Source of the DNA: an uncultured Candidatus Peribacteria bacterium | GTDB lineage: Bacteria > Patescibacteriota > Gracilibacteria > Absconditabacterales > Absconditicoccaceae | Assembly (NCBI GenBank): GCA_964620295.1 | Contig: CAZUIS010000001.1 | Span: forward strand, 1-29,638 | Reading direction: 5' to 3' | DNA length: 29,638 nucleotides | In this document: positions 1-29,638 of the stretch, piece by piece | Layout of the letters: every line of letters starts with the position of its first letter | Numbering within the stretch: position 1 is the first letter of the stretch | Position numbers and translations under genes: made by a program | The notes under the pieces: model-generated | Told to the model about the DNA's origin: nothing | The model's input: the letters and a program-made list of their open reading frames with translations, nothing else | Databases searched by the model: none

Positions 1-1
1 T

Positions 2-283
2 ATTCAAGCATCAATATTTTTTGTTTGGTTTCCAATCATCATTGGGGTTATATTCATGATTTTTACTGATGGCCACTTCAAAGAATCGCATGTGAATGTT
101 GGTATAATCATTACATTACTAGTAGATGTAGTTGGTATGTTTTATATAATGGAGCATCCCATAGGTAAAATAACCATTACAGATGCTACTGTAAAAGAAG
201 AAATCAACAGAAGGGTTGCAGAAAACAACAAACTACTGGAAACTAAAAAAAAAGAGAATCAGGAACTAGAACTTTCTTACTAA
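2..283 (+). CDS. 5'-truncated membrane protein (C-terminal part)
   Basis: Frame of track ORF 56..283 is open from base 2 (IQASIFFVWFPIIIGVIFM...). Two hydrophobic stretches then a charged tail. TAA at 281-283 is followed by a terminator. Confidence 0.65.
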   Translation: MQASIFFVWFPIIIGVIFMIFTDGHFKESHVNVGIIITLLVDVVGMFYIMEHPIGKITITDATVKEEINRRVAENNKLLETKKKENQELELSY

Positions 284-284
284 G

Positions 285-309
285 CGTTGGATATATCCAA
301 CGTTTTTTT
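285..309 (+). terminator. Intrinsic terminator
   Basis: Perfect inverted repeat cgttgga-tata-tccaacg (285-302) followed by T7 (303-309), immediately after TAA 283. Confidence 0.8.
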
Positions 310-379
310 AGATAAACTATATTTTTTGCATTTTTCATAATTCTCCATATACTTACCTTGGTTTATTTCTCTCCCAACT

Positions 380-1585
380 ATGGAACAAGAAAAAGTAAGA
401 GAATTAGTAAATAAACAACCGTCTGAAGAACAACAAAAAACCATAAAAGAATTTCAGACTATTTTTTCTGAATTTAAAAATGAAATAAAAACAACAGCCC
501 AAGAAAAGACACAAGAAACACTAAATAAAGAAGATTTTACCAAACTTTTTGAATCTTTTGGCAGAGATTTACGAGACAATCAAAAAGAATCCCATATTCA
601 TGACAACGAAAATACAAAAATAAACCTTGAACGAGTCTACAACTACATATTACAAAAATGTACGACAAAAGATCCAAGCTTTATCCAAAAAATACAAGAC
701 CACGAAAAAACATATCTCACAGAAGAAATGCTCTCTTGACAAGGACTCTACTACAAAAAATTAATGATACTCAACATCTACCTAACAGAATATTTTTGAG
801 TGTTTTTTGCATACAATACCAGACATCTCGCCTATACTCCAAACCCAATTTTGGAAGCAGAAAAAAAACAAGTTTCAAAAGACGAACAGATAAAAATACA
901 AGAATCTATGCAATGATTTGGATTTGAGAGCGACCAACAACCAATTGAATATATATTAGTGAAAGGCAAATTTCCTGACACTAATTTCCAATGAGTATAT
1001 ATAGCAAACACCATATTTGCTTTCGACCAAACAGGAGGAGAAGACGTACAGCAAAGTATCATCCATGAATATGTTCACCAATGTTTCGATAAAAAATATG
1101 GCAACCAGATTTGACTCCAAGAGATTATCAAAAGCGATGAAAAAGAATATCGCATAGGATATATCTCTGATGGAATTTTCAAAAACGAATCACGATATAC
1201 AGCAACAGGACTATCAATTCAAGAATTTCTTGCTGATGCAATAGAAATGAATCTCTCAAAAGGAGGAAATCAGATAGACTTACGACACAAAGCATACAAT
1301 CTCAACGAACACAAAACATGTCCGATAAAATACAGAAATAGTATATGGCTAATGACATATCTCATTAACAACACTCCAGAACTAAGAGATATCTACGAAA
1401 AATACACAGACAATATAAAACATTTAGGAGAAGAAAAAGCTGACCAGATACTAAAAGAAAAATTAGAATCAACAAAAATCCAAGAAAAAAGCTGCCAAGA
1501 ATATATCACACAAAAATACTTTACAAAAACACAAGAAATAATCAGAATAATCGAAACCATAAGAACATCAAAAGGAAAAAAATAA
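380..1585 (+). CDS. HExxH-containing putative zinc metalloprotease (~401 aa)
   Basis: With TGA=Gly, track ORFs 380..739 and 1247..1585 (same frame) join with no TAA/TAG between them. Contains SIIHEYVHQC (1064-1078) and downstream QEFLADA (~1220-1240). No signal peptide. Confidence 0.75.
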
Positions 1586-1645
1586 TCAAAATTTGATTTT
1601 GAAAACGAAAACTGTATAAGTACCAGATAAAACAAAAACAGAACT

Positions 1646-2110
1646 ATGAACATCAAAGTAATGGCACTTATCATTAGCGGAATGACGATGATAGGGTGTA
1701 GTCTCAAGACTGACAAATCTATTGGTACAGAACAAATCAACAAGAAGATTGAAACATTAAAGAAAGAAAAGGATTCTCTCCTGTCAAGAAGACAAGAATT
1801 GGCAGAAGAAGAATTCAAACAGAAGAAAAGCGATGATTTAAAATTTGCTCTAGATCAAGAAATATTAAGCAAAGATGTAAAAATCAATGAGCAAGTACTA
1901 GAAAAAAGCAAACTACAATTAGATAAAAAAAAGTATGAAACAAAATTAGTTATCATATCAATTGTTGGAGTTATTGTACTAACGATTATTCATGTATTGC
2001 TTCCCAAGAAAAAAGAAACAAAGAGCTGATGGTTTTTTCATCAGCTTTTTTATAAAAAAAAGAGATTTTCCTTGATTTTTCCTACCAAAACAACACAATT
2101 CTCTTTATAG
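1646..2110 (+). CDS. Putative lipoprotein with coiled coil and C-terminal TM helix (ends 2029 if TGA acts as stop, 2110 under UGA=Gly)
   Basis: MNIKVMALIISGMTMIGC is lipobox-like. Middle is K/E/Q-rich, then hydrophobic LVIISIVGVIVLTIIHVLL and a basic tail. TGA at 2027-2029; next in-frame TAG at 2108-2110. Confidence 0.7.
2021..2051 (+). terminator. Intrinsic terminator-like hairpin overlapping TGA 2027-2029
   Basis: Stem agctgatg (2024-2031)/catcagct (2039-2046), 7-nt loop, T-run 2046-2051. Confidence 0.65.
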
Positions 2111-2142
2111 AAATATAGTATAATAGAAAAATAGAATTAAAG

Positions 2143-2193
2143 ACTATTTAACTATACCACTATAAAAACTATTTAACTATACCACTATTTAAC
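2143..2193 (+). repeat. 20-bp direct repeat plus partial third copy upstream of the exonuclease gene
   Basis: actatttaactataccacta at 2143-2162 and 2168-2187; actatttaac again at 2184-2193. TATAAT at 2119-2124 lies upstream; ATG at 2196. Confidence 0.8.
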
Positions 2194-2195
2194 CC

Positions 2196-4304
2196 ATGAA
2201 TCTCAATCCAAACTACAGATATATAGGTCTCGACTTCGAAACCACAGGACTTGATTTTACCAAAGATGAACCAATCCAAATAGGAATCGTAGAAATTGAT
2301 CACACAGGGAAAATTATCAATGAATTTTCTAGTCTTCTCAAACCAACTAAGGATCTCAACGAACTCAAAACAATAGTCTGATTTATCACGGGAATAGCTG
2401 TTGACGATATAGCAAACGCTCCAACACCGCAAGATATTCTTCCACAGATTCAATCATTTTTCACAGACAACACCATTCTTATTGGTCATAATATCAAGTT
2501 CGATTTAATGTTTCTAAATAAGTTTTTTTCCGATCTCAGCTACGCTGATACGATTGATACGTTTCCGCTGGCACAAGCCGTGATACACTATCAGTCCAGT
2601 TACGCACTAGAGGTTCTTGTGCCAGGAGAAAACGCCCACAACGCGCTTCAAGATACAAGAAACGCCCTCATTTTTTTCCAAAAAACTATCGAAAGACTTG
2701 AAATCCTCCAAACAAAATATCCAATTCTCTCTCATTTCACTTCCAATACGAACTATTCTCTCTCTAAATATCTCTCAAATAAACCAACACCAGAAAATTC
2801 AATACAAATCAAAGATATTCCAAGACTGACCAAAATTATGGGATCCTACACCCAACCCCAACCAAACGAAAAAACTCTCAGCACCTCAGAATTAGAAAAT
2901 CAAAAAAGATATTACGTAGGAAACAGTAATCTCAAAACATTTTTGGAACGTATTATTCCCAACAAAAATATCATTCTGACTTTTTCTAATCTCCAAAAAC
3001 TCAATATCGCAAAATCGATGCTCAACAATATGGGCATTAAAAATCTAGGATTTCTCAAAGATGATCAGATGATGGATTACCAAAAATTTGAAAATTTTCT
3101 CAACAAATCAACACATACTCACGAAGAAATCGCATTTATTTGTAAATATTATTCTCACCTAGAACAAGGTTTGGGATTACTTGATCTCAATACCAAAAGC
3201 GATTATCAAATTTATCATGCGCTCAAAAACAAAAAAGAAAAAACAAGATATCCTATCGTTTTAGCGACTCACCAAGGATTGTTTTCTTATATCCAAGACG
3301 AAACCAACGAATATCAAGACTATGAAATTCTATTTTTTGACGCTGAACGACGATACAAAAGTTATAACCTTTTCCTTTCTCGTCCTTGGGATATGTATTA
3401 TACACTTAATTTCATAGAGACCCTTCTCTACAAACAATCCCTCGACACTCAAATCCAAAAAAATGGAGAACAGAAAACCCAAAATTTAGAAGTATTTTAC
3501 ACTTCTTTCCAAATTTTTATTGGGCAGCTTTTTATCGAAAGCAAACAATTATTCACAGGAAATAATCTTGATAAGATCCAAAGCAACCCAATTACTACAG
3601 ATCCGACCTTTTACAAGACCAACCTTCTTTGGAAACAAATCAAAGAAAATCTTTCGCTCCTTGAAAATGAAATTGAAAAATCAGACTTTACAATTATCAA
3701 AAAACAATTTGATCACATAGATACGCTCTTCAACACAGTAGTAAATATCGAAAAGAAAATGATGGGAGAAGAAATGAATTTTGTCTACAGCGAACACACC
3801 CAATATACTTCATGGTCAGAATTTGTTGAAATATTTCCTTCAACAATCTATTTTTTCTCAAACACCGACAAATCTGCAGCTATGCTTTTTCCCAATAATG
3901 AATTTCAACAATCTATCAAAACCATCAAAATCTGACTTTATGACAGGATTCTCACCTATCTCCAAAACAACATTCCAACTGACGATTCCAACACTTCTCA
4001 TCTAACTAAATCTTTCTTTATCGCGTCAACAAGAAAAGAAGAATCCAAACAATTATTTGAAACATTATACAAAAACAATCTCCACAATTATTACACCATA
4101 GTAGCAGAAAACATCACCTGATGAGCAGGAAAAAACATCTTTAAACTCAAAAACAACAAACCCAAAATAATTATTGGTTGATATGCATTCTTATTATCCG
4201 TATATGCAGAGTGTATTTCTCTTGATGAAATCATCATTTTCAATATAAGAGGAAATAATGAACAATCAATTTTAGATGACATCCAACGGTATGCCAACAA
4301 ATAA
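2196..4304 (+). CDS. DEDDh 3'-5' exonuclease (DnaQ-like) fused to a degenerate DinG-like helicase region (~702 aa)
   Basis: TGA=Gly joins 2196..2381, 2508..3935 and the extension to TAA 4302-4304. ExoI GLDFETTG, ExoII GHNIKFD and ExoIII HNALQD are intact. Downstream PIVLATHQGL and ILFFDAE align by eye to DinG IVVTNHALL and LIIDEAH. No intact Walker A. Confidence 0.8.
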
Positions 4305-5196
4305 GGTCTTGTTCAGCGATATAATCAAATTTTTGATAGCAACAAGTATTATTTTGCTAGGATTTTTACGAAAAGGAGAAAAAGTCGGCGAAACGCAAGA
4401 AAACATATTTTTTCAAGATTATTTAAGCAAACAAGAAACGACAGAAACTATTTCCCAAGAAATATTCTCCCCAAAAACAAGTCCCGAAGAAACCCATGAA
4501 AGCGCACCAGAAATCCAAGATAAATGTACACAAGACGACGCTCTTTGCAAAAAAATAGAATTACAAGAGACAACAGCCATATTGCCTTACAAAAATCAAG
4601 TATATACAACCACGTATTTCATCAACACCAATCAAATCATTAAGAAAAAAATTGTAGATACTGTTCAAAAAATAGAGATCAAAGATGATAAAAACGAAAA
4701 AAGATGATACGCTACACGAGATACAGTTGTACTAAATATAGGGCCAATCGACAATCTAAAAGAATTCCAAAATCTTTCGGCACATGAATTAGGACATATC
4801 TTTGATTTATGAACAATTCAAGGAAAATCAAAAACAAAAAACAAGTTTTTTACGGAATTTAATAGGGCGGTTTTTTCCACAGATGATCCGTCGATTTTGT
4901 TCTACAAAATCTCCCGAGAATCCGAGAAAGTCAGAAAAAAAACCGCCACCAAAAAAGATTTTTGTAGTGGCTATGGAATGACAAACCCATTTGAAGATTT
5001 TTCTGAGTGTTTTAATCTCTTCATAAATAACCAAACCTTTTTTAAAATTATAGCCAAAAAAAACAAAACTCTGGAATTAAAATATAATTTTATTGCTACC
5101 CTCCTTCAAGGGCAATACCTAGAAAAAAACACGCAAGCACTGCAATTACTCAAAGAAGATATTGCGCGAAGGCCTCGAGACACAACAAAACTTTAA
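4291..5196 (+). CDS. Membrane-anchored zinc metallopeptidase (HExxH...EDFSE), ~301 aa
   Basis: TGA=Gly joins 4276..4707 and 4897..5196. N-terminal hydrophobic anchor IIKFLIATSIILLGFL, HELGH at 4783-4797, NPFEDFSE from ~4984. Start uncertain (ATG 4276 or 4291). Confidence 0.78.
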
Positions 5197-5209
5197 TCAT
5201 TGACGAGAT

Positions 5210-6619
5210 ATGAAAAAAACAAAACTTCTCCTCTCTCTACTTATTTCAATTCGATGAATAATACCATTCATATCTTTTTGACAAACACCAACAAATCAAG
5301 AGCCATGTACAACATGTTCTAGTTCTCCAGAAACACTATTATTGGTAAACAATTTTATCAATGAAATACTTCTCGAAATAAGAACAGTCTGAACAGCGGC
5401 CCCTTATGCGGGAAAATTTGTTCCTCCTAGCCGATTTGATACAGGAAAATTCGTAGGACAAAAACAAGGTATTTTAACAAAAGGCCTAAAACGAGCTAAA
5501 CAATCACTATGAAGCGTATTAGCCATCAAAAGAATATATATGGAATTTTGAGATGGAGTTGAAGTCATAGACTCTTTTGCTGTATTACCAAGAAACAAAA
5601 CCATCTTAAGAGACTGGCAGAAATTAGAAAAAATAGACGAGCTCATCAATAAAAAAAAATATGAACTTTCGGTAGGATGAGGACGAACAGATAAAATAGG
5701 AGGAGTGCCTTATCAAAACATGGAAAGAATAATAAAAAAATATCAAGATCTTTGAATTTTAACAAAAGATTCCAGTAAAATAAATGAATGAGCTGAATAT
5801 GGAGACCTTATCACATTATTATCAAAAATAAACAGCTCTATGAAACATCTAGTGGCGCTTCAGGGAGATAATCGAGCAAAAAAAGAAAAAGAAATCATAA
5901 TCATTTTATTAACAAGAGGAAGAATCTCTTTTAAAATACAAGAAACCGCAGTAGAAAAAATCAAAACCGCTTATGATTGTACAAAACGATACAAATGCGA
6001 ACAATCTCGAACAAACGCAAAAGATGAACTTAAAAAAATTAAAGATACTTTTAAAGATGGAATAAAAAGATCATCAGAGCAATTCAAAATTGCAAATGAT
6101 AAGCTTAAAAAAGCATATTCTCGAGAAAACATCAAAAAATCTATTCGAGAAGAAAACACAATAGTAAACCAACTTTCAGGAAGCATCAATAAGTTATGGA
6201 GGAAATTTGAAAAAAAAGATAATGAGATAAACGAGATCGAATCTTGGACCCAAGAACAAGATTGAGCTCAAAACACAAAAGACCAAGATAACAACGGAGA
6301 TCTACCAACTACAAGAAATGAAATAGAAAATAATTTACAAATAGCTGAAGACAAACAAGCAATTATCGATAATTTCATTGCTAAAATAGAAAAAACACAA
6401 ATGATGATAAGAGATGAGGCTACAACAATGGAAAGCCAATATAGGACAACTGACATTTCTGATATCATGGCATACTTCACTTCATTATCACAAACAACCA
6501 AAGGAATAACAGAAAACATAATTGGAAGCAAAGACTCAGAAAAAGACTGCCTTATCAAAAACCTAGGAGAGCTTTGTGAAAAACAGTGCGTAAACATAAG
6601 CAAAAAATGTTATTATTAA
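5210..6619 (+). CDS. Secreted hypothetical protein with N-terminal CxxC and C-terminal 4-Cys cluster (~469 aa)
   Basis: One open frame under UGA=Gly that includes track ORFs 5840..6265 and 6401..6619. Signal peptide MKKTKLLLSLLISIWGIIPFISFG; CTTC; C-terminal DCLIKNLGELCEKQCVNISKKCYY. Confidence 0.78.
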
Positions 6620-6636
6620 TTATTATATAAGAAATA

Positions 6637-7791
6637 ATGAAACAATCTTCAAAAAAACAAGCATATACAATTGTTGGAATCATAAGCATGATAGGTTTTT
6701 TTGTATGATCAATAACTCAAGCAAAAACAATTGATATCCAGTCTTTTTTGGTTTGAATAGATATGATCGAAGAAGGAAAGACTGATAATGATAATTTTAA
6801 CGCAATGTTAGTGTCATTTTGTTCTGCTATAAAAGAGTACAAAGAAATTTACAATAACATCATTTATGATAGTTCTCAATCACTTTTTGTCTATTATGTC
6901 TGCAAATACAAAAATGCAGGATCATTTGTATACAAAAATAAAGGGTTTTCCGATTCAGAAGAGATGTCCTACATGAAGTTCGAAAAGGACAACGAAGGAG
7001 AAAGCAAAAACAAGCTAGAGCAATCTTTACCATCTTTTTACAAGGAAACAGAAAAATATACAAAACAACTTTTTGACAAAATTATTGCAAGTTATACCAA
7101 CATCTATCAAGCAAATTTATATGGATACGCAAATAATCCAGACAAAGATCCAGAAGAAATAATTCACGAAAAATTTAGCAAAACATTTTTCAAAAGAAGC
7201 AATAAAGAAAACGATTATATACAATTTTGTTCTACAGAAAACCAAAAGGACACCTATCCCAAAACATGTAAAACGCTAAAAGAATATTTCTACGTAGGAA
7301 AAAACTTAATAAACGGAAATTGATCTAATTATCTAAACGACCAAAATATTTATGCAGGACTAGGAAAAACAAATTGTTGAAAAAAGTCATCAAGAGATAT
7401 TATTGCCTGCTGACTATTTTGAAATAAAATAGAAGATATCATCCACCCTATTTATAACGAACTGATGATGTATACGATATTTGTAGAATATTATTCATAT
7501 CTTTTGGAAAGCAAACCAAATTTTAGAAATCGAGACGAAAAAGAATTTCAAAAAAAAATAGCAAACAATCAAAACAGAATACAAAAAATGATAAGCAGTG
7601 TTGAATCATCAAGAAAAGCAATACAAACGACAATCAGAAAACTAAAAGAAACCCAATATACGCTACCAATTCATATCTGATTCCTTATGTATAGCGAGAG
7701 TATCTACGAATTAACAACAAATATGAATAAAACACTGACTCCTATTTATACATTACATGACATTCTAAGAAATGTTCAAAACCCAAACTAA
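6637..7791 (+). CDS. Secreted hypothetical protein with paired cysteines (~384 aa)
   Basis: One frame under UGA=Gly that includes 6763..7323 and 7465..7680, ending at TAA 7789-7791. Signal MKQSSKKQAYTIVGIISMIGFFVGSITQA. Confidence 0.78.
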
Positions 7792-9766
7792 AAAAATTAA
7801 ATTACTTATTCTTTTATGAGCTTTGTTGGGACTAATCCGAAGCATATTTTTCTTGAGAAAAAATGTTTTTGGTTGAATAGTTAACAACTTATTACAAGAA
7901 ACACTAAACATAATAGAGTCAAATCAACCAATAGAAGCTATATTTGAAGGAAAAATAACTGAAAGCATTTATGAAAAAGCTCTTGAAGCAGAAACCGTTG
8001 AAAGTGCAAAAATAACAAATGCAGCATTAGAAGATATGCAGTTTATAAACAGTTGAGTTACCATCAAAAAAGAAGATTTGCTCAACATATTATACTATAC
8101 AAACAACAACATCAATTATGCGATGAATAAAGTTTGCGAAAACAAAAAAAGTTGCAATATTACTCAAAAAGATATTTCAAAAAGCTATGATAACATAATA
8201 AAAGAATTACACCAAGCAAAGATCTTATCTACAAATAACAACAATCTAATAACAAGAAAAAAAGTAGATAGCCGAGTTAACAACAATTTTATACTATTTT
8301 CAAATAATGAATCTTCTTTTAAACAATTTGAAACAGCAAGTATCTGAGAAGATCTATTTATCAATGGAGTTCTCGAAGACGGAGATTACGATTTACAAGT
8401 AGACATGGAAAACATAGGAAACCTTTTGTTTGAATCATTTATCAGTCCCATTGAAACAGTATTTTATAAACTACCAACAAGCAAAAAAGGAAGTTCCGCA
8501 AATGGATGAAACAATTCAAACAACAATAGTAATGAAAGCATAAAAGATATTCTTCAAAAAGCATTAAACCAAATAAATACAGGAGTAATTACCAACTGAG
8601 GAGAACAAAACATATGATGACAAAATTCAACATCTCAAAATCCGCAAACAACAAACAAACAAATAACAACAGATTTAGATACTGATTTAAAAAATTTTAT
8701 AGCACAAAATAAGGTAACACAGCAAGAAGATCGTCAAAAAATAGGAGGAGTAGCTGGAGATATCTGTAGAGAAGAAATAGAAAGTAATGAAATAATTTCT
8801 CAAACAGAAGGAAACATAACAACACCAAGTTTCCAAGAAATAGAAAACTATCTAAAAGAAGCTCAAAACGAAATATCTTCATATAACAACACCTATCCAG
8901 AAAATCAAATAGCACCAAACATCAACAATATTTTAAGTGGGATGGATCCAAAACAGGCAAATGCGTTTGTTGAGGACTATATTAATGATTTTTTCAATAC
9001 AGAATCGACAGAATCTTGTCTAAAAAGTTGCAATAGTTTACCAGCTTCAGAAAGAATCATCTGCCAAATACAATGCCTATGTTTTACTATGTGACGACCA
9101 TCAGACAAGGATCCTAGAGTAAAAAATATGAATGAAATGTTGAAGTTAAGATTTTGTATGGTTCCTGCCAAAAGCATAGCAATTCCTAGAGGGAAAAGCA
9201 TTTATAGTCTAGACGATATTCTAGAAAGAATAAAAGCAAATATGGAAGATACAATCCAATGAGGCCAAATGGTAAAATTTCAAAAAACAAAAGAATTTTT
9301 GGATAACCCTATAGCAGATCTTAAGCGAGACAAAGTTATTTCCTTTCAAATAAATGTTAACATGAAACCATTATTTAGCAACAAATCTGCTTTAGCAAAA
9401 AAAGATCAAGAAAAAACAGCTTTAGAAAAGTTAGAACAGTCAGCTGGGAAAGAACAATCACCATGAACAAACAATAACAAATACGTCATCATCCAAGACA
9501 TTGCTAAAAACAAAGTTTACAAAGAATATGCCTGAGATTTTGAAGAATATCAAAACAAATACAATCAAGAAGTAGAAAAAATAAACCAAGAAAAAAATGA
9601 AAAAGAAAACTCGTTTAAACAAACAAACGTCATAAACGACCAAAAAGCAAGTTTTTTAACAACATTAACAGATTTTCTAGATAAGAATCTGGCATTCCGA
9701 AAGGAAACGGAAAAAAAATTACAAAATATTAATAACGTAGTAAATGCATTAGAAAGTAAGCTTTAA
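7772..9766 (+). CDS. Secreted or anchored hypothetical protein with N/Q/G-rich linker and CxxxC...CxxxCxC motif (~664 aa)
   Basis: One frame under UGA=Gly that includes 8078..8347 and 9269..9466, ending at TAA 9764-9766. N-terminal hydrophobic segment; SCLKSCNSLPASERIICQIQCLCF at ~9015-9085. Overlaps the upstream gene by 20 bp. Confidence 0.78.
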
Positions 9767-10221
9767 GTCAAGAAAGCAGCAACAATAGCTTTCATTATTG
9801 CATAAGAAAATGTTATAACGAGCACGCCAATAACAGCATTACTAATTGCTTTATTTGCTGAAGAAGGATCTTTTCCAGTAAAAATATTAGTAGCGTAAAG
9901 ATACCCCGCATAAACAATAAAACAAGCCCCAACGAAAATTCAAATTTCAGAAAGAAATTTAATAAGATATGCTAAATAGTCTAGCAAAGTATCCCATGTA
10001 AAAACTCAAGAAGCTAACTGAGCTGCAAGATTTTTCTTTTCCTTAAAAACACGTGCTTGTTGATTATAAGCATCCCAAACATGTCATCAAGAATTAGCAA
10101 TTGTTGTAACCGCCTGTTCCACTCCATCACTAGGTTTAACCTCTGGTATAATTTGAAGGTTTTGCGCAAACAGCGATCAATAAAATCCCAAAGAAAGAAG
10201 TAACCCAATAAAATACTTCAT
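9763..10221 (-). CDS. TrbC/VirB2-like (T4SS-type) pilin, ~152 aa
   Basis: Absent from the ORF track because of TGA. Signal MKYFIGLLLSLGFYGSLFA. C-terminal two-helix hydrophobic hairpin FLSEIGIFVGACFIVYAGYLYAT...KAISNAVIGVLVITFSYAIMKAIVA matches the pattern of CPR VirB2-like pilins (recognised by eye). Confidence 0.7.
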
Positions 10222-10244
10222 ATAACATATCTAAAAAAATAAAA

Positions 10245-11075
10245 TTATTTTTGGCAATAAGATGATAACGGGGCTTGTTGGAGTAAGATATCAAAGAGAC
10301 TTGAAAGAGTTGAAAGTTTATCCAATAACTTCATCAGCCTATTCTCCACGAAATACTTTGTATAAGAAGTAAAGCCATCCAACAAAAGAGTTGTTGCATT
10401 ATATTGAGAGATCAAAATAGCTAAGGAAGTTTCTTGACGAATTCTAGAGGAGACCAAAGAAAAACACCTTCCATAATAACCATCAGCTTCAATATCTATA
10501 TGATTTGTTGGTGCTAATTGATAATACATTAACATGGCAACCAAACAATAGTTAATATATTTATCATGAAGACTATATCAAGAAATATTTCAGAGAAGGC
10601 TTACAGGATCTTTGTTAGTTTCATAAAGTTCATAAAGATACGGTTGTTTAATTGTTCGATATTGTTTATATTTTTCTCCAAATCAAGAAACATTTTTTTT
10701 ATAGTCAATGTCTTTAACAAATTCTCTCCATTCTTTTCCCAAAGGATCAGGTATCATACCCGGATACATCATTTCTGCATCAAGCTTTCTTAATCAAACA
10801 TCAATAAGATGATCATACCAATAAGGACTTTCTGGTCAAACATCAAGATTCTCACAACTTCAACGATAAAGGTTTTCTAAACAACAATAAGACCTTAGAT
10901 GATTTTGAGCAATTTTCAAATCATCAAGAGAAAGAAATGGAGAAAACGCAACCCAAGAAGGAGTAACGTTGTCTGATAAAATAGTATCACAATCAGTTTT
11001 AGCAAAACTAAAACCCAAAAACAAAGGGATCAAAAAGACAATTCATCAGATTATTTTTTTTTGAAAACAACTCAT
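10245..11075 (-). CDS. Secreted Cys-containing hypothetical protein (~276 aa)
   Basis: Frame of track ORF 10245..10544 is open under UGA=Gly up to ATG 11075. Signal MSCFQKKIIGGIVFLIPLFLGFSFA; motifs YCC...GSC, PESPYWYDHLIDVGLRKLD, PDPLGKEWRE. Confidence 0.78.
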
Positions 11076-11096
11076 AAAAACAAGGAAAAATATAAA

Positions 11097-24439: not shown

Positions 24440-25633
24440 ATGGCCGAACCACTTTCTTCATTACTCAGACCACAAACATTAGATGACTGTATAGGACAAC
24501 AACATCTTATTGGACCTGGTAAACCTATACGCGTTTTTCTCGAACAGAAAAAAATTCCTTCAATGCTTTTTCGAGGACCTCCAGGATGCGGAAAAACAAC
24601 GGTAGCAAGAGTTATCGCTAATATGCTTGAAGCAGAAACCTTCTTCCTATCAGGAGTAACCAGCAAAAAAGAAGATCTCAAAGAAATATTGGTAAGAGCA
24701 AAAACCAATAGACAATATGGCAAAACAACGATCATTTTTTTGGATGAAATACATCGCCGAAACAAGGCTCAACAAGATACTTTACTCCCTTATGTAGAAA
24801 AAGGAGATATTATTCTCATTGGAGCAACCACCGAAAATCCAAGTTTTTCTATCAATAGTGCCCTTCTTTCTAGGTCAAGAACCTTTGTTTTTGAAAGACT
24901 ATGAGAAGAAGACATCAAAGATTTTATCAACAACAATCGACAAAAAATTCTGGATTCTCATCCAGGGATAATTGCTTCCGACGAAGTAATTTCTTATATC
25001 GCAAGACTTGGAAACGGAGATTTGAGAAATAGTTTAAATATTTTGGAAGCAACTATTTTTTTGAAAAAGACAGGAGAAATAACAATAGAAGACATAAAAA
25101 TAGCCGGACAAAAAAATCTCTATTACGATAAAAACGGTGAAGAACATTACAACATCATTTCAGCAATCCACAAATCGCTTCGCGATAGTAATGCTGACGC
25201 AGCATGTTACCGGATCGAGAGAATGCTCGCCGGCGGGGAGGACCCGCTCTACATAGCGAGGAGATTACTCCGCTTCGCATCCGAAGACATCGGCCCCGCC
25301 GACAACAATGCCCTCCTTCTCGCAAATCAAGTCTATGATGCTGTTTCCAAAGTAGGTATGCCAGAATGTGATATTTTTCTGATACAACTAGCTCTCTATT
25401 TAGCAAAAGCACCCAAAAACAATATCACTTATAAAATATCCTTAGAAACCAAAGCGGATATAGAAAAATATGGAAATCTTCCTGTTCCTATGGATATTAG
25501 AAATGCACCGACAAATTTTATGAAAGAATTAGGATACGGAAAAAATTATCAATACACACACAACCAACCAGATAAAAAAACAAATAATCAGCATTTTCCC
25601 AATGAATTACAAGGAAGAACCTACGGAAAATAA
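24440..25633 (+). CDS. rarA: Replication-associated recombination protein A (MgsA/RarA AAA+ ATPase), ~397 aa
   Basis: PLSSLLRPQTLDDCIGQQHL, GPPGCGKTT, DEIHR.NKAQQD, GATTENPSF, GDLRNSLN, YNIISAIHKSLRDS, EDIGPAD, MKELGYGKNY. TGA 24902-24904=Gly joins the two track ORFs. Confidence 0.96.
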
Positions 25634-25696
25634 CAGCTCTTGAAATATACCTACAAGTAGTTAAAATACCAGGACTTTATATCTTTATTTTTTCTC

Positions 25697-26227
25697 ATGA
25701 AAAAATTTATTGTATGAGTAATTATGGCTGGAAGCATTTTACTCGTAGGATGTTGAAAAACACCAACAACTGATGTTTCAACAGAAGGAATAGCACCAGA
25801 AAACAAACAAGAAAAGCAAAATGTATTCAAAGGAACAGCAAAAGACCTTTTAACAAAAGAAGATAATGTAAGTTGTTCATTCACTTTTGAAGACAATGAT
25901 ACCAAAGAAGAAGGAACTATATACATTTATAAAGGGATGATGAAAAGCGTCGCAAAAGTTCAACTTAAAAAAGAAAATATGAACCTAGAAGCCTATACAG
26001 TAACAAAAGATGGATATACCTATACACGAAGTAATATTCAAAAAAGCCAATGAGCAAAATTTAAAACAATACCTGAATGAACAAACGAAGAAGCTTATTC
26101 CGAAGATCCTTTAGGAGAAAAAGAAGTGGATTTCGTTTGTAAAGAAGAAAACCTTCAAGAAAACATGTTTGAAATCCCAAGTGATGTAAGTTTTATGGAT
26201 ATAACTGATTATCTAAAGAATAAATAA
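25697..26227 (+). CDS. Lipoprotein, hypothetical (~176 aa)
   Basis: Hidden by TGAs. MKKFIVGVIMAGSILLVGC-G lipobox; SCSF...GTIYI, DGYTYTWS (CGA=W), FVC...FEIPSDVSFMD; TAA 26225-26227. Confidence 0.8.
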
Positions 26228-26229
26228 TT

Positions 26230-26259
26230 AAAAAAATGGAGCAATTGCTCCATTTTTTT
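26230..26259. terminator. Bidirectional intrinsic terminator between the lipoprotein gene and secA
   Basis: Perfect palindrome A7-tggagc-aatt-gctcca-T7, overlapping the secA TAA. Confidence 0.88.
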
Positions 26260-29200
26260 ATACTGATCAACAACACTTTTTATACTTTTTACCACTTCCA
26301 CAAGGACAAGCATCGTTTGGTTTTGGCTTTTTTGAACCCGTTTCAAAAATATCTTTATATGGATTTTTTTGTTCTGAAGAAACTTCAAACACTTCAACAT
26401 CTTGTGTAGAAGCTGCCTTTTTTTTGGAAATTACAGATTGAGTAGGGGCAATTGCTCCAGCCTGTTGAAGAGTATCAAGGTAAGAAGAATCATTTACATC
26501 AACAACCTGAGAAGATGGCTTTGAAGAGAAATCGAAATTAACAAGATACAAGGTCACATCCTGTTTTAATCTCATAAGTAAGCTTTGGAATTTTTCAAAC
26601 GCTTCTTTCTTATAGACAACTAGAGGATCTATCTGAGCATATCCCATAAGACCAACCTTATCTCTTAGATATTCCATTTCATCAATATGTTTAACCCAAA
26701 GTGTATCCAAATTATAGAGATAGACATCTTTCAAAAATCTATAAGCAATCATATGATCTGCTGAAGAAATAGGGTCAACTACCTTTTTAATAAGATGTTC
26801 TGATATTTTTTCTTGAAGTTCAGGGAACGAACACGAAGCCAATGATGCACTAAAAGAAGAATCCAAAGAAAATTCTTTCATTGCAGCTTCTAGATATGAT
26901 TTTTCAGTTTGTCCCAAAGTTTGGGCAGTCACGAGAGAATAAGAAACAATGTCGCGAATATTTTGAGGGATCTCGATAAGCATTGATTCTACCAAAGATT
27001 TTCTACGACTTTCGTCTGTTTCCGAAAAAAGAATATCATCTCTTTTTTTGTAAATTGCTTGTCTTTGTTTGTTAATCACACTATCATATTCAAATACATG
27101 TTTTCTAGAACCAAAATGCCAAGCTTCCATCTGTTTTTGAGCTCTCACGATAGAACTATTAAATTGCTTTTGAGTAAGTTCAAGATTTTCTAACTCTGTT
27201 TTTGGCAAAAGCATTGCTGCCATAGACTGGATTCTTTCTCCTCACATTTTTCTCATAATCAGATCATCTAAGGCCACAAAAAATACAGAAACTCCAGGAT
27301 CTCATTGTCTTCAAGCACGTCCACGAAGTTGATTATCTATACGTCTTGACTCATGTTTTTCTGTACCAAGAATAAATAATCCATAGTGGAAATCTTTTTG
27401 AATCAAATCACCAGCATTTTTATGTTCTACAACAATTTTTGCATAAGCATCTTCGTTATTTTTTTTGCGAGAATTAAATACAATTTTCAATGTAACATCA
27501 TCTAAAGACAATCAACCAGATTGTGCTGTACGAATCTGTTCTTCATCCAAATTCCAAATACGCATAAATGCATCCATCGTTAAATCATATTCAACTTCAG
27601 AATATACCAAAGCCGAAACTGAAGATGGATTTTTTGCCAAAACTTGTTTTTTTGTCCAATTAACATAATTATCTGCTAATTTTTCATTAAGACCTTTATC
27701 TAACTTAATATCTGTCCCACGTCAAGCCATATTTGTCGCAACAACAACACTCTTAAATTTACCCGCTTGTGAAACAATATGTGCTTCTTGTTCATGAAAT
27801 TTTGCATTCAAAACATAGTGGGTAATTCCTTCTTTTTCCAATACTTTAGACACATGTTCAGATGTATCAATAGAAGATGTTCCAATCAAAATAGGTTGAC
27901 CGATTTCATAAGCAAATTTAATATATTCTTTTACAAACTTCCATTTTGCAGCCTGATTAAAATAAACCTTATCATGTCTATCTACTCTAATGGTAGGTTT
28001 ATTTGTAGGTATTTCCAAAACCGAAAGTTCATAAATTTTTTCAAATTCTTCCCCTTCAGTAGTAGCAGTACCCGTCATACCACCAAGTTTTTTGTATTGT
28101 TTGAAAAAATTCTGATAGGTAATCGTTGCCATAGTTTTTGATTCTTTTTGAATAGTAACACCCTCCTTGGCTTCGATAGCTTGATGAAGACCTTCAGAAA
28201 ATCTTCTTCCTGGCATAGTACGACCCGTATGTTCATCAACAATAAGAACCTCTCAGTTAACAACAATATACTCTCTATCTCTTTGATAAACAGCTTGAGC
28301 TCTCAAAGCATTTTCTATATGATGAATTTCTTCATATCCTATATCTTTATACAAATTTTCTACTTTCAAAATTTCTTCCAATTTTTTAATTCCGATACCG
28401 CTCAAAGAAACTGTTTTTGTTTTTTCATCAATATAATAATCACCATCTTCCTCTTGTTGAAGTTCATCTGCACGAACCAACTCGTTTAACAACCCCTTTG
28501 ATACCTTTTTCTTTGTAGAACAAGGCGTAAGAAAGCGAACAATTTGCGCATAATACACATATTTATCTGTTGCTTCAGCACTTGCTTCTGAAATAATCAA
28601 AGGTGTTCTTGCCTCATCAATCAAAATACTATCAATTTCATCAACGATAGCATAATGAAGTGGTCTTCGAACCAAACTTCTTCATTCAATTGATTTAACT
28701 AAATTATCTCTCAAAAAATCAAATCACAATTCTGAATTTTCAACATAGGTAATATCACTTTCATACATTTCACGTCTCTTTTGTAAAGAAACACTTTTTG
28801 TAACACAACCAACAGATAACCCAAGAAAATTATACACATATTTCATCCAATCAGAGTCACGAGATGCAAGATAATCATTAACCGTAACAACATGAACTCC
28901 TTTTCCTTCCAAAGCATTGAGATAAACAGGAGCAACAGCAACAAGCGTTTTTCCTTCTCATGTTTTCATTTCAGCAATAATCCCCTTATGCAAAATAATT
29001 CCTCACAAAAGCTGAACATCATAAGGAATCATATCCCAAGTGAGTTCTTGTCCTCTTACTTGAATTTTTGTTCAAACAAGTCTTTTACATGCTTGTTTTA
29101 CAAGACCAAAAGCTTCGGGCAACAAACTATCCAATGACTCTCATTGAGCAATTCTTTGTTTAAATTCTTCTGTTTTTTTTGGAAAGTCTTCATTTTTAAG

Positions 29201-29311
29201 GAAATTATATTCATCATACCAATGATTAGCCTGATGAACAAGTGGCATAAGTTTATTTATCTGTCTTTGATTATAATTTCCAGACATCCAGTTCAAAATC
29301 CATTGTAACAT
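26258..29311 (-). CDS. secA: Preprotein translocase ATPase SecA (~1017 aa) with C-terminal SEC-C zinc motif
   Basis: [124 protein letters not shown]. All fragments are in one frame joined by TGA=Gly. Confidence 0.98.
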
Positions 29312-29402
29312 ACGAAAAAAATAAGTAATAAATTTTATAGCAACTTAGTATAGAAAAACTGAGCCGGAAAACAAGACAAAAAAAGAAATAGGTTTGAAGA
29401 AT

Positions 29403-29585
29403 TTACCCAAAAAACCTTTCTTCCAAATCATCTTCATATTCATCACTTTCTTCATCTTCATCATCTTCTTCATCGCGTTCTTGAGCATCTTCATCATCCT
29501 CATTCTCAGAAGAAAATAACAGTTGCCAAAACAAATGGCTTCTATATTCCCCAAAAAAAGTTTCTAAGAAAAGTGTCATAAGCAT
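29403..29585 (-). CDS. Small protein with highly acidic C-terminal half (60 aa)
   Basis: ATG 3 nt after an upstream in-frame TAA; tail SENEDDEDAQERDEEDDEDEESDEYEDDLEER; lies directly upstream of secA. Confidence 0.5.
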   Translation of the reverse strand: MLMTLFLETFFGEYRSHLFWQLLFSSENEDDEDAQERDEEDDEDEESDEYEDDLEERFFG

Positions 29586-29588
29586 GTA

Positions 29589-29636
29589 TTAAAAATAAAT
29601 ACGAACAAGATCTAAATTTCCTTTACCAAGCTTCCA
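29589..29636 (-). CDS. Possible 3' end of a gene running off the window (...WKLGKGNLDLVRIYF*)
   Basis: The only minus-strand frame open from the window edge, ending at TAA 29589-29591. Too short to identify. Confidence 0.25.
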   Translation of the reverse strand, partial: WKLGKGNLDLVRIYF

Positions 29637-29638
29637 AA

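Follow-up and report, generated by a model that had tools for sequence, protein, structure and literature searches.

Sequence evidence for UGA as glycine and for CGA and CGG as tryptophan in an Absconditabacterales (SR1) genome

How are the codons UGA, CGA and CGG read in a bacterial contig whose genes fall apart under the standard code? The contig in question, C1 of an assembly deposited as an uncultured Candidatus Peribacteria bacterium (GCA_964620295.1), is analysed here over its complete length of 29,638 bp, which we refer to as the window; the assembly comprises 944 kb in 114 contigs, with a GC content of 31%, a completeness of 91% and a reported contamination of 2.7%. An initial annotation, made from the letters of the window alone, proposed that UGA encodes glycine and that CGA and CGG encode tryptophan, and held this code to be known rather than new. 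The latter point is correct: Shulgina & Eddy 2021 (eLife 10:e71402, PMC8629427) described CGA/CGG as Trp in the Absconditabacteria alongside UGA as Gly, which was known before, and a 2026 paper in Nucleic Acids Research treats the Absconditabacteria code as established (PMC13092985). The comparisons presented here indicate that this genome very probably uses the same code, with UGA read as Gly and both CGA and CGG read as Trp. The three-codon code is not new; what we add is per-genome support for CGG as Trp in the GTDB genus UBA5124.

The reading frames of the window raise the question directly. Under table 11 the longest open reading frame (ORF) has 475 amino acids. When TGA is taken as a sense codon, 14 ORFs tile the contig, one of them 4365 amino acids long with 155 in-frame TGA; together these 14 main ORFs hold 228 TGA, 40 CGA, 2 CGG and 75 TGG codons, and they stop at TAA (13) or TAG (1). 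In-frame TGA breaks 13 of the 14 under table 11, and a standard ORF track is indeed invalid for this contig, as the initial annotation had warned. Its second warning, that table 25 alone would turn Trp into Arg, also applies: with that table every gene is whole, and 42 codons of the window that we read as Trp are translated as Arg.

Two conserved proteins, SecA and RarA, and a small lipoprotein-like ORF carry the codons on which the proposal was built.

26258..29311, minus strand: secA, 1017 amino acids, with 13 in-frame TGA, 1 CGA and 10 TGG (Pfam SecA_DEAD, P-loop_SecA, SecA_SW, SecA_PP_bind and SEC-C)
28958..28960, minus strand: TGA at the Walker A glycine of SecA, MKT-G-EGKT; B. subtilis SecA has G in this column
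27302..27313, minus strand: two TGA (27311-13 and 27302-04) at glycines of the RGRAGRQGDPG motif of SecA; PDB homologues have RGRSGRQGDPG
26267..26269, minus strand: TGA at the glycine that closes the SEC-C zinc motif, KKCC-G (Pfam places SEC-C at residues 999-1015); B. subtilis has KNCCG
24440..25633, plus strand: rarA/mgsA, 397 amino acids, with 3 CGA, 1 CGG, 0 TGG and 1 TGA (Pfam MgsA_C, AAA_assoc_2 and AAA)
24572..24574, plus strand: CGA before Walker A of RarA, residue 45, F-x-GPPG; the homologous residue is W in E. coli RarA (3pvs) and Y in 8g28
24758..24760, plus strand: CGA after DEIHR of RarA, residue 107; homologues have F (3pvs) or L (8g28), a hydrophobic/aromatic column
25211..25213, plus strand: CGG at residue 258 of RarA, Y-x-IERM; homologues have W (3pvs, 3bge, 3ctd) or Y (8g28)
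25697..26227, plus strand: small lipoprotein-like ORF, 176 amino acids in translation, with a signal peptide ending LLVGC, 4 TGA and 1 CGA (26027-29)

All eight codons cited in these three genes by the initial annotation are present where it had placed them, in the peptide contexts that it gave. The PDB homologues of SecA, which match the window protein at E ~1e-186, have Gly at all four of the TGA columns, and the description of these as invariant glycine sites therefore stands. Likewise, the window RarA matches E. coli RarA (3pvs) at E 5.7e-95, and its CGA and CGG do fall at Trp or aromatic sites: in the PDB RarA/MgsA homologues the three columns read W/Y (residue 45), F/L (107) and W/W/W/Y (258), with Arg in none of them, and the two standard-code genomes of the phylum used below have Y and W at residue 258. 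The lipoprotein-like ORF matched no Pfam family, and its CGA is CGA in all four SR1 orthologues, so that these are uninformative on its meaning. A GC-rich patch in rarA (25160-25339; 56-58% GC vs 28-36% in most of the remaining gene, with 38-43% in its first ~240 bp) spans the most conserved MgsA_C segment, including the CGG codon.

The question can be extended to the whole genome by asking what other bacteria place opposite each codon. In a Codetta-like test, 787 ORFs were called with TAA and TAG as the sole stops, TGA, CGA and CGG were masked as X, and the comparison ORFs came from two complete, standard-code genomes of the same phylum that bear release factor 2 (RF2) plus part of a same-class genome. 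The CGA columns (n=307) contain W 28%, F 12%, Y 10% and L 9%, a profile near-identical to that of the TGG columns (W 37%, F 9%, L 8%, Y 8%), and the few CGG columns (20 observations at 15 sites) contain W 40%, Y 15% and R 10%, the Arg coming solely from one Adk gene. TGA columns (n=1705) are 59% G, compared with 60-67% for the GGN codons. At the columns of Arg codons, R reaches 51% (CGT), 42% (CGC), 58% (AGA) and 54% (AGG). When the columns of each codon were compared by likelihood with the profiles of all 20 amino acids, the best model was W for CGA, with Arg worse by ~949 log-likelihood units (lnL), W for CGG, with Arg worse by ~47 lnL, and G for TGA, with the next-best non-Gly model worse by ~1,800 lnL; for CGT, CGC and AGG it was R. 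An initial run in which CGR was scored as Arg, and which was therefore biased against Trp, gave the same picture. Furthermore, Arg stands opposite CGA in 3.6% of cases and opposite TGG in 3.0%, and hence there is no residual Arg signal at CGA. In-frame TGA is present in 669 of the 787 genome ORFs, and the ORFs end at TAA (598) or TAG (129).

Comparison within the clade tells which codons exchange with one another. The window SecA is 82% identical to that of Candidate division SR1 bacterium RAAC1_SR1_1, and its other nearest named relatives are metagenome-assembled genomes (MAGs) of Absconditabacteria; the genus of RAAC1_SR1_1 is GTDB UBA5124 in the 2021 table (PMC8629427). These relationships, judged from SecA relatives and the genus listing of genomes, support the assignment of the source genome to the Absconditabacterales (candidate division SR1), and to the same genus as RAAC1_SR1_1, and the SR1/Absconditabacteria placement that the initial annotation had suggested checking through SecA is upheld. 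In a SecA codon alignment of 75 SR1-clade relatives, with columns set by the SecA codons of the window, the Trp columns (802 codons) hold TGG 400, CGA 145, CGG 34 and Arg codons 3, whereas the Arg columns (3,115 codons) hold AGA 1521, CGT 394, AGG 212, CGC 33, CGA 2 and CGG 0. At the 23 strictly Arg columns (~1,730 codons) CGA and CGG are both zero.

The same pattern emerges from ortholog exchange with RAAC1_SR1_1 (408 pairs, mean identity 77%; the matrix covers 800 kb of the 1.18 Mb of that genome, and the region syntenic to the window lies outside it). CGA (585 codons) stands opposite CGA 380 times, TGG 133, CGG 12, AGA 5 and CGT 2; TGG (1037) stands opposite TGG 786 times, CGA 169 and CGG 7; and CGG (37) stands opposite TGG 16 times, CGA 15, CGG 3 and AGG 2, which puts 34 of the 37 in TGG, CGA or CGG. 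TGA is matched by TGA or a GGN codon (GGA, GGT, GGG or GGC) in 2,216 of 2,599 cases. A separate observation concerns the variable SecA column 858, where the window codon is TGA and the relatives mix CGA 21, TGA 7, TGG 7 and GGA 6: TGA and CGA are one transition apart, and Gly/Trp swaps are therefore easy under the SR1 code.

If the codons are read in this way, the genome should contain the corresponding tRNAs. ARAGORN found 22 tRNA genes in the genome and none in the window, and all of the relevant ones lie on other contigs.

Contig C40, 6504-6577: tRNA(UCA), with G1:C72, C2:G71, G3:C70 and U73, the Gly set of PMC8629427
Contigs C41, C40 and C67: tRNA(GCG), tRNA(UCU) and tRNA(CCU), with A73 and A20 (GGAUA D-loop), Arg
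Contig C39, 7363-7436: tRNA(UCG), with G1.U72, G73, U20, G37, an A27.C43 mismatch and an encoded CCA, Trp-type
Contig C6: tRNA(CCG), with A1:U72, G73, C20, A37 and a 5-bp anticodon stem, Trp-type
Contig C11: tRNA(CCA), with A1:U72, G73 and U20, Trp

The provisional rule proposed in 2021 for Trp acceptors is G73 and not A20, with 1:72 as a supporting element (PMC8629427); tRNA(UCG) and tRNA(CCG) both agree with it and both have A/G1:U72. No Arg-type tRNA able to read CGR was found in the genome, tRNA(GCG) being the sole Arg-type reader in the CGN box, and ARAGORN detected no tRNA(ACG) in this 22-gene, incomplete tRNA set. For the complete genome of the same genus, the published table lists an identical set of CGN tRNAs (PMC8629427). 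Among the relatives, Trp-type tRNA(UCG) was found in seven of eight same-genus genomes and in six further same-family genomes, Trp-type tRNA(CCG) was detected by BLAST in this genome and four of the eight same-genus genomes only, and four genomes that belong to other families of the class have an Arg-type tRNA(UCG) with A73 and A20.

The termination machinery points the same way. The genome has one class-I release factor, with a score of 420 bits against prfA and 239 bits against prfB, whose own gene contains 7 in-frame TGA; RF2 (prfB) was not found in this 91%-complete genome. Nor did any of 24 same-family genomes, including the complete same-genus genome, give an RF2 match that passed the cut-off; the only release factor seen in them is RF1-like, its gene full of TGA. 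Of the other families of the class, 15 of 16 have RF2, and 58 of 61 genomes sampled from the phylum gave a match above the cut-off. One trpS, on contig C47 (5057-6031), and one argS, on contig C40, are present. Thus the tRNA-Gly(UCA), the Trp-identity tRNA with a CGR-reading anticodon (in fact two) and the loss of RF2 that the initial annotation had named as signs of such a code are all seen here. For UGA as Gly the support consists of column decoding, ortholog exchange, a Gly-type tRNA(UCA) and the failure to find RF2; for CGA/CGG as Trp it consists of the columns, SecA synonymy in 75 relatives, ortholog exchange and the Trp-identity tRNA(UCG) and tRNA(CCG).

How might such tRNAs have arisen? 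Whole-tRNA nearest neighbours of tRNA(UCG) and tRNA(CCG) all lie at 64-74% identity, and at that level the parents are not separable. The two halves of tRNA(UCG) behave differently: its lower half (anticodon arm, variable loop and T arm) is 82-87% identical to the Arg-type tRNA(UCG), and its upper half (acceptor, D arm and N73) only 40-49%, with corresponding values of 59-61% and 48-61% against Trp(CCA) tRNAs. This suggests that tRNA(UCG) descends from an ancestral tRNA-Arg(UCG) whose identity switched. For tRNA(CCG), where the same split was uninformative, the acceptor+D and anticodon+T halves are 67% and 66% identical to one Trp(CCA), and 37% and 59% identical to an Arg-type CCG. As for structure, the A27.C43 mismatch leaves tRNA(UCG) with a 4-bp anticodon stem here and in all same-genus genomes where this tRNA was found; in some same-family genomes its stem is back to 5 bp, and the stems of tRNA(CCG) and tRNA-Trp(CCA) are 5 bp. 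The mismatch is relevant to the "extended superwobble" discussed in PMC13092985.

These features can be assembled into a plausible route. tRNA(UCA), with its glycine identity set, would decode UGA as Gly, and no RF2 gene was found, so that nothing would terminate at this codon. The CGN box would be split: tRNA(GCG), with the Arg identity elements A20 and A73, would read only CGU and CGC, and the CGA/CGG readers tRNA(UCG) and tRNA(CCG), which have lost A20 and carry G73 with G1.U72 or A1:U72 like tRNA-Trp(CCA), would, to judge from these identity elements, be rejected by the single arginyl-tRNA synthetase and charged by the single tryptophanyl-tRNA synthetase. In E. coli and B. subtilis, tRNA-Trp identity is set mainly by C35 and G73, with A36 less important; given that dominance, CCG and UCG anticodons would be tolerable. 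Remodelling of the acceptor and D arms would have produced tRNA(UCG) from the ancestral tRNA-Arg(UCG). The outcome would be a Trp with three codons, of which CGA/CGG make up 41%, the choice among them tracking local strand composition. That CGG is fully captured by tRNA(CCG), that tRNA(UCG) represents an identity switch and that the 41% usage has been shaped by strand-specific mutation bias is, as a joint proposition, one toward which we lean slightly.

Several points weigh against the three-codon reading and should be considered together. The charging of the tRNAs is deduced from identity elements alone, and the code is known here from sequence comparison; in vivo decoding can be established only by experiment (PMC8629427). 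The genome is 91% complete with 22 tRNA genes, and a further Arg-type tRNA for CGR, or an RF2 gene, is conceivable. Residue 107 of RarA is F or L, not W, in the PDB homologues. The remaining points concern CGG: it is rare here (128 codons; 15 aligned sites), Codetta in 2021 called it "Arg" in one UBA5124 species and "?" in another, and a divergent third Adk-family gene (contig C57:2727-3365; L108:1468-2106) has CGG at residues 119 and 151, which align with conserved LID-domain arginines.

Do these points favor another code? It could be argued that CGA and CGG keep their Arg meaning, as they do in table 25, the official SR1 code, and that the Trp and aromatic columns reflect chance substitutions in a fast-evolving lineage; Arg does stand at 3.6% of CGA sites. 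We regard this as hardly credible: the CGA profile is that of TGG and unlike that of any Arg codon, with the Arg model ~949 lnL behind; the Arg columns of SecA across the clade contain 2 CGA among 3,115 codons; TGG and CGA exchange more than 300 times between orthologs vs 8 for CGA and AGA; and the genome yielded no Arg-type tRNA for CGR. Similarly, UGA might be read as Trp (table 4), which is the commoner bacterial reassignment, or might still be a stop amid widespread pseudogenes or readthrough, and one ORF of the window (1646-2110) does seem to end naturally at a TGA in a terminator hairpin. This too is extremely improbable, given that the TGA columns are 59% Gly, like GGN, with non-Gly models at least ~1,800 lnL worse, that TGA swaps with GGA, GGT, GGG and GGC between orthologs, that tRNA(UCA) bears the Gly identity set, that 669 of 787 ORFs have in-frame TGA, that the ORFs end at TAA or TAG, and that RF2 was not found in the genome.

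A more serious alternative accepts CGA as Trp and holds that in this genus CGG has kept its Arg meaning, is ambiguous or is in effect without an assignment. In the 2021 table the UBA5124 species have CGA as Trp, with CGG called "Arg" in sp002414185 and "?" in RAAC1_SR1_1, at a CGG frequency of ~1.4-1.6 per 10,000 aligned codons (PMC8629427). The codon is scarce in the present genome as well (4.9 per 10,000 codons), CGG/AGG exchanges appear 2+2 times in the ortholog matrix, and the Adk paralog has its CGG at conserved Arg positions, a relative having AGA at 151. Set against this are a dedicated tRNA(CCG) with G73, A1:U72 and C20, here and in four of eight same-genus genomes; a Trp-type tRNA(UCG) that should also read CGG through wobble; the 34 of 37 aligned CGG that face TGG, CGA or CGG in RAAC1_SR1_1; columns that are 40% W, with Arg confined to the one Adk gene; and the SecA alignment of the clade, where CGG stands 34 times in Trp columns and never in an Arg column. 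In addition, the column test applied to the CGG codons of RAAC1_SR1_1 itself (15 observations) placed F (4), W (3) or Y (2) opposite the codon in 9 cases and R in 1; W was the best model, and Arg trailed it by 24.5 lnL. Thus, unlike in the 2021 calls, CGG acts as Trp here and in RAAC1_SR1_1; the sequence evidence now available favors CGG as Trp in this genus, beyond what the 2021 per-genome table gives, and we consider an Arg or unassigned CGG improbable.

The Adk paralog remains an exception to CGG as Trp. It has no TGA and no TGG, no orthologue was found among 24 same-family genomes, and its only close relative (L265) is 87% identical and apparently truncated, with AGA at 151 and CGG at 119; a donor search returned, besides one 92%-identical fragment, nothing above 37% identity. 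Near it lie an S1-domain gene, a gene for DNA alkylation repair and, two genes away, a KilA-N gene, the last a weak hint of a mobile element. Contamination was considered as a source of contig C57 and rejected, since other genes of C57 use TGA and CGA as sense codons and the contig is native. The paralog is probably a foreign or decaying gene and not evidence for CGG as Arg, and a few foreign genes of this kind could explain "Arg" calls when CGG is very rare.

It is informative to view the three-codon reading in light of other altered codes. The genome resembles the Absconditabacteria of the 2021 study in clade, in the three codons and in the tRNA set (no ACG, an Arg-type GCG, UCG and CCG with G73 and without A20, and a Gly-type UCA), and RAAC1_SR1_1 itself stands in the table of that study with UGA as Gly and CGA as Trp (PMC8629427). 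The Absconditabacteria were described there as lacking tRNA(ACG), with low GC and with AGA as the dominant Arg codon (PMC8629427); here, too, GC is 31% and AGA is the main Arg codon. Elsewhere, CGG is read as Trp in Anaerococcus and the RFN20 Bacilli (Onthovivens) and as Gln in Peptacetobacter (PMC8629427), and the parallel lies in a rare, GC-rich Arg codon taken by an identity-changed tRNA(CCG) in a low-GC genome. Those lineages have a tRNA(ICG) for CGA and are without tRNA(UCG), and only CGG has changed (PMC8629427); in contrast, no tRNA(ACG) was found here and a Trp-type tRNA(UCG) would move CGA and CGG together. Loss of RF2 and capture of a stop codon in small, AT-rich genomes are shared with users of table 4 (Mycoplasma/Spiroplasma and insect endosymbionts), in which UGA is Trp; here UGA is Gly, and Trp has expanded through CGR. 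With NCBI table 25 (SR1 and Gracilibacteria) the genome has in common UGA as Gly, RF2 loss and tRNA-Gly(UCA), and differs from it in CGA/CGG, which are Arg in that table and Trp here. The sources named for table 25 are reportedly Campbell 2013 and Rinke 2013.

The new Trp codons are in wide use. Genome-wide, 1,324 CGA/CGG codons vs 1,870 TGG amount to 41% of Trp codons, and CGA/CGG occur in 473 of the 787 ORFs; per 10,000 codons of all ORFs there are 46 CGA, 4.9 CGG and 72 TGG, a usage so high that the reassignment must be well advanced. Within the window the choice of codon depends on the strand: plus-strand genes have 33 CGR and 9 TGG, minus-strand genes 9 CGR and 66 TGG (Fisher p = 4e-13, with the present gene calls). 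CGT for Arg shifts as well, from 3 on the plus strand to 51 on the minus strand, and the CGT/AGA choice moves in the same direction. The same strand contrast in Trp codons is seen in contigs C7, C9, C12 and C6, and across the genome the per-gene CGR fraction correlates with skew at four-fold sites (rho 0.42 with A-over-T skew and -0.45 with GC skew, that is, with C over G). Trp codon choice thus fits strand-specific mutation pressure on a synonymous TGG/CGG/CGA family.

The rest of the window consists of one giant ORF and nine smaller ORFs, all with in-frame TGA and most of the nine with CGA as well, as established from ORF calls and codon counts.

11097..24194, minus strand: giant ORF of 4365 amino acids, readable only with TGA as sense; 155 TGA, 7 CGA and 51 TGG
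380-1585, plus strand: ORF with in-frame TGA
1646-2110, plus strand: orphan ORF with in-frame TGA
2196-4304, plus strand: ORF with in-frame TGA, containing an RNase_T exonuclease domain
4276-5196, plus strand: ORF with in-frame TGA
5162-6619, plus strand: ORF with in-frame TGA
6637-7791, plus strand: ORF with in-frame TGA
7772-9766, plus strand: ORF with in-frame TGA
9763-10221, minus strand: ORF with in-frame TGA
10245-11075, minus strand: ORF with in-frame TGA

The giant ORF, in which Pfam recognises nothing but one FG-GAP_3 repeat (residues 2032-2093), presumably encodes a giant surface protein. In the orphan ORF 1646-2110, for which no orthologue was found among eight same-genus genomes, a TGA at 2027-2029 lies within an 8-bp hairpin (2024-2046), with a run of T after it on the plus strand; with TGA as Gly, the frame extends 27 codons more, to TAG at 2108-2110. 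This ORF looks as if it could end naturally at the TGA inside the terminator hairpin, or its 27-codon tail may be translated.

Two further observations concern records and contigs. Among public MAGs with a SecA 56-85% identical to the one in the window (loci L145-L224), many bear the title "uncultured Candidatus Peribacteria bacterium" and one that of "Fermentimonas sp." Peribacteria proper keep RF2 and the standard meaning of CGR in the 2021 table (PMC8629427), and because of this the titles look like taxonomic mislabels or bin contamination. In the present assembly, the short contigs C71, C87, C66, C99, C104, C23 and C46 have few or no in-frame TGA or an odd GC content (C71 46%, C87 59%, C99 22%); rRNA, mobile DNA and the 2.7% contamination of the bin are candidate explanations.

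The practical consequence of the three-codon code is considerable. Applied genome-wide, table 25 misreads 1,324 CGA/CGG codons, ~41% of the Trp positions, and for SR1 proteins such misreading harms sequence searches, the prediction of structures and the inference of active sites. The CGR change is carried by no NCBI table, and both the contig and the genome need to be translated with a table 25 in which CGA and CGG are changed to W. More broadly, the genome would provide a clean further case of sense codons captured by tRNAs of altered identity and, if this reading is true, a rare natural case in which the choice among synonymous Trp codons can be studied.

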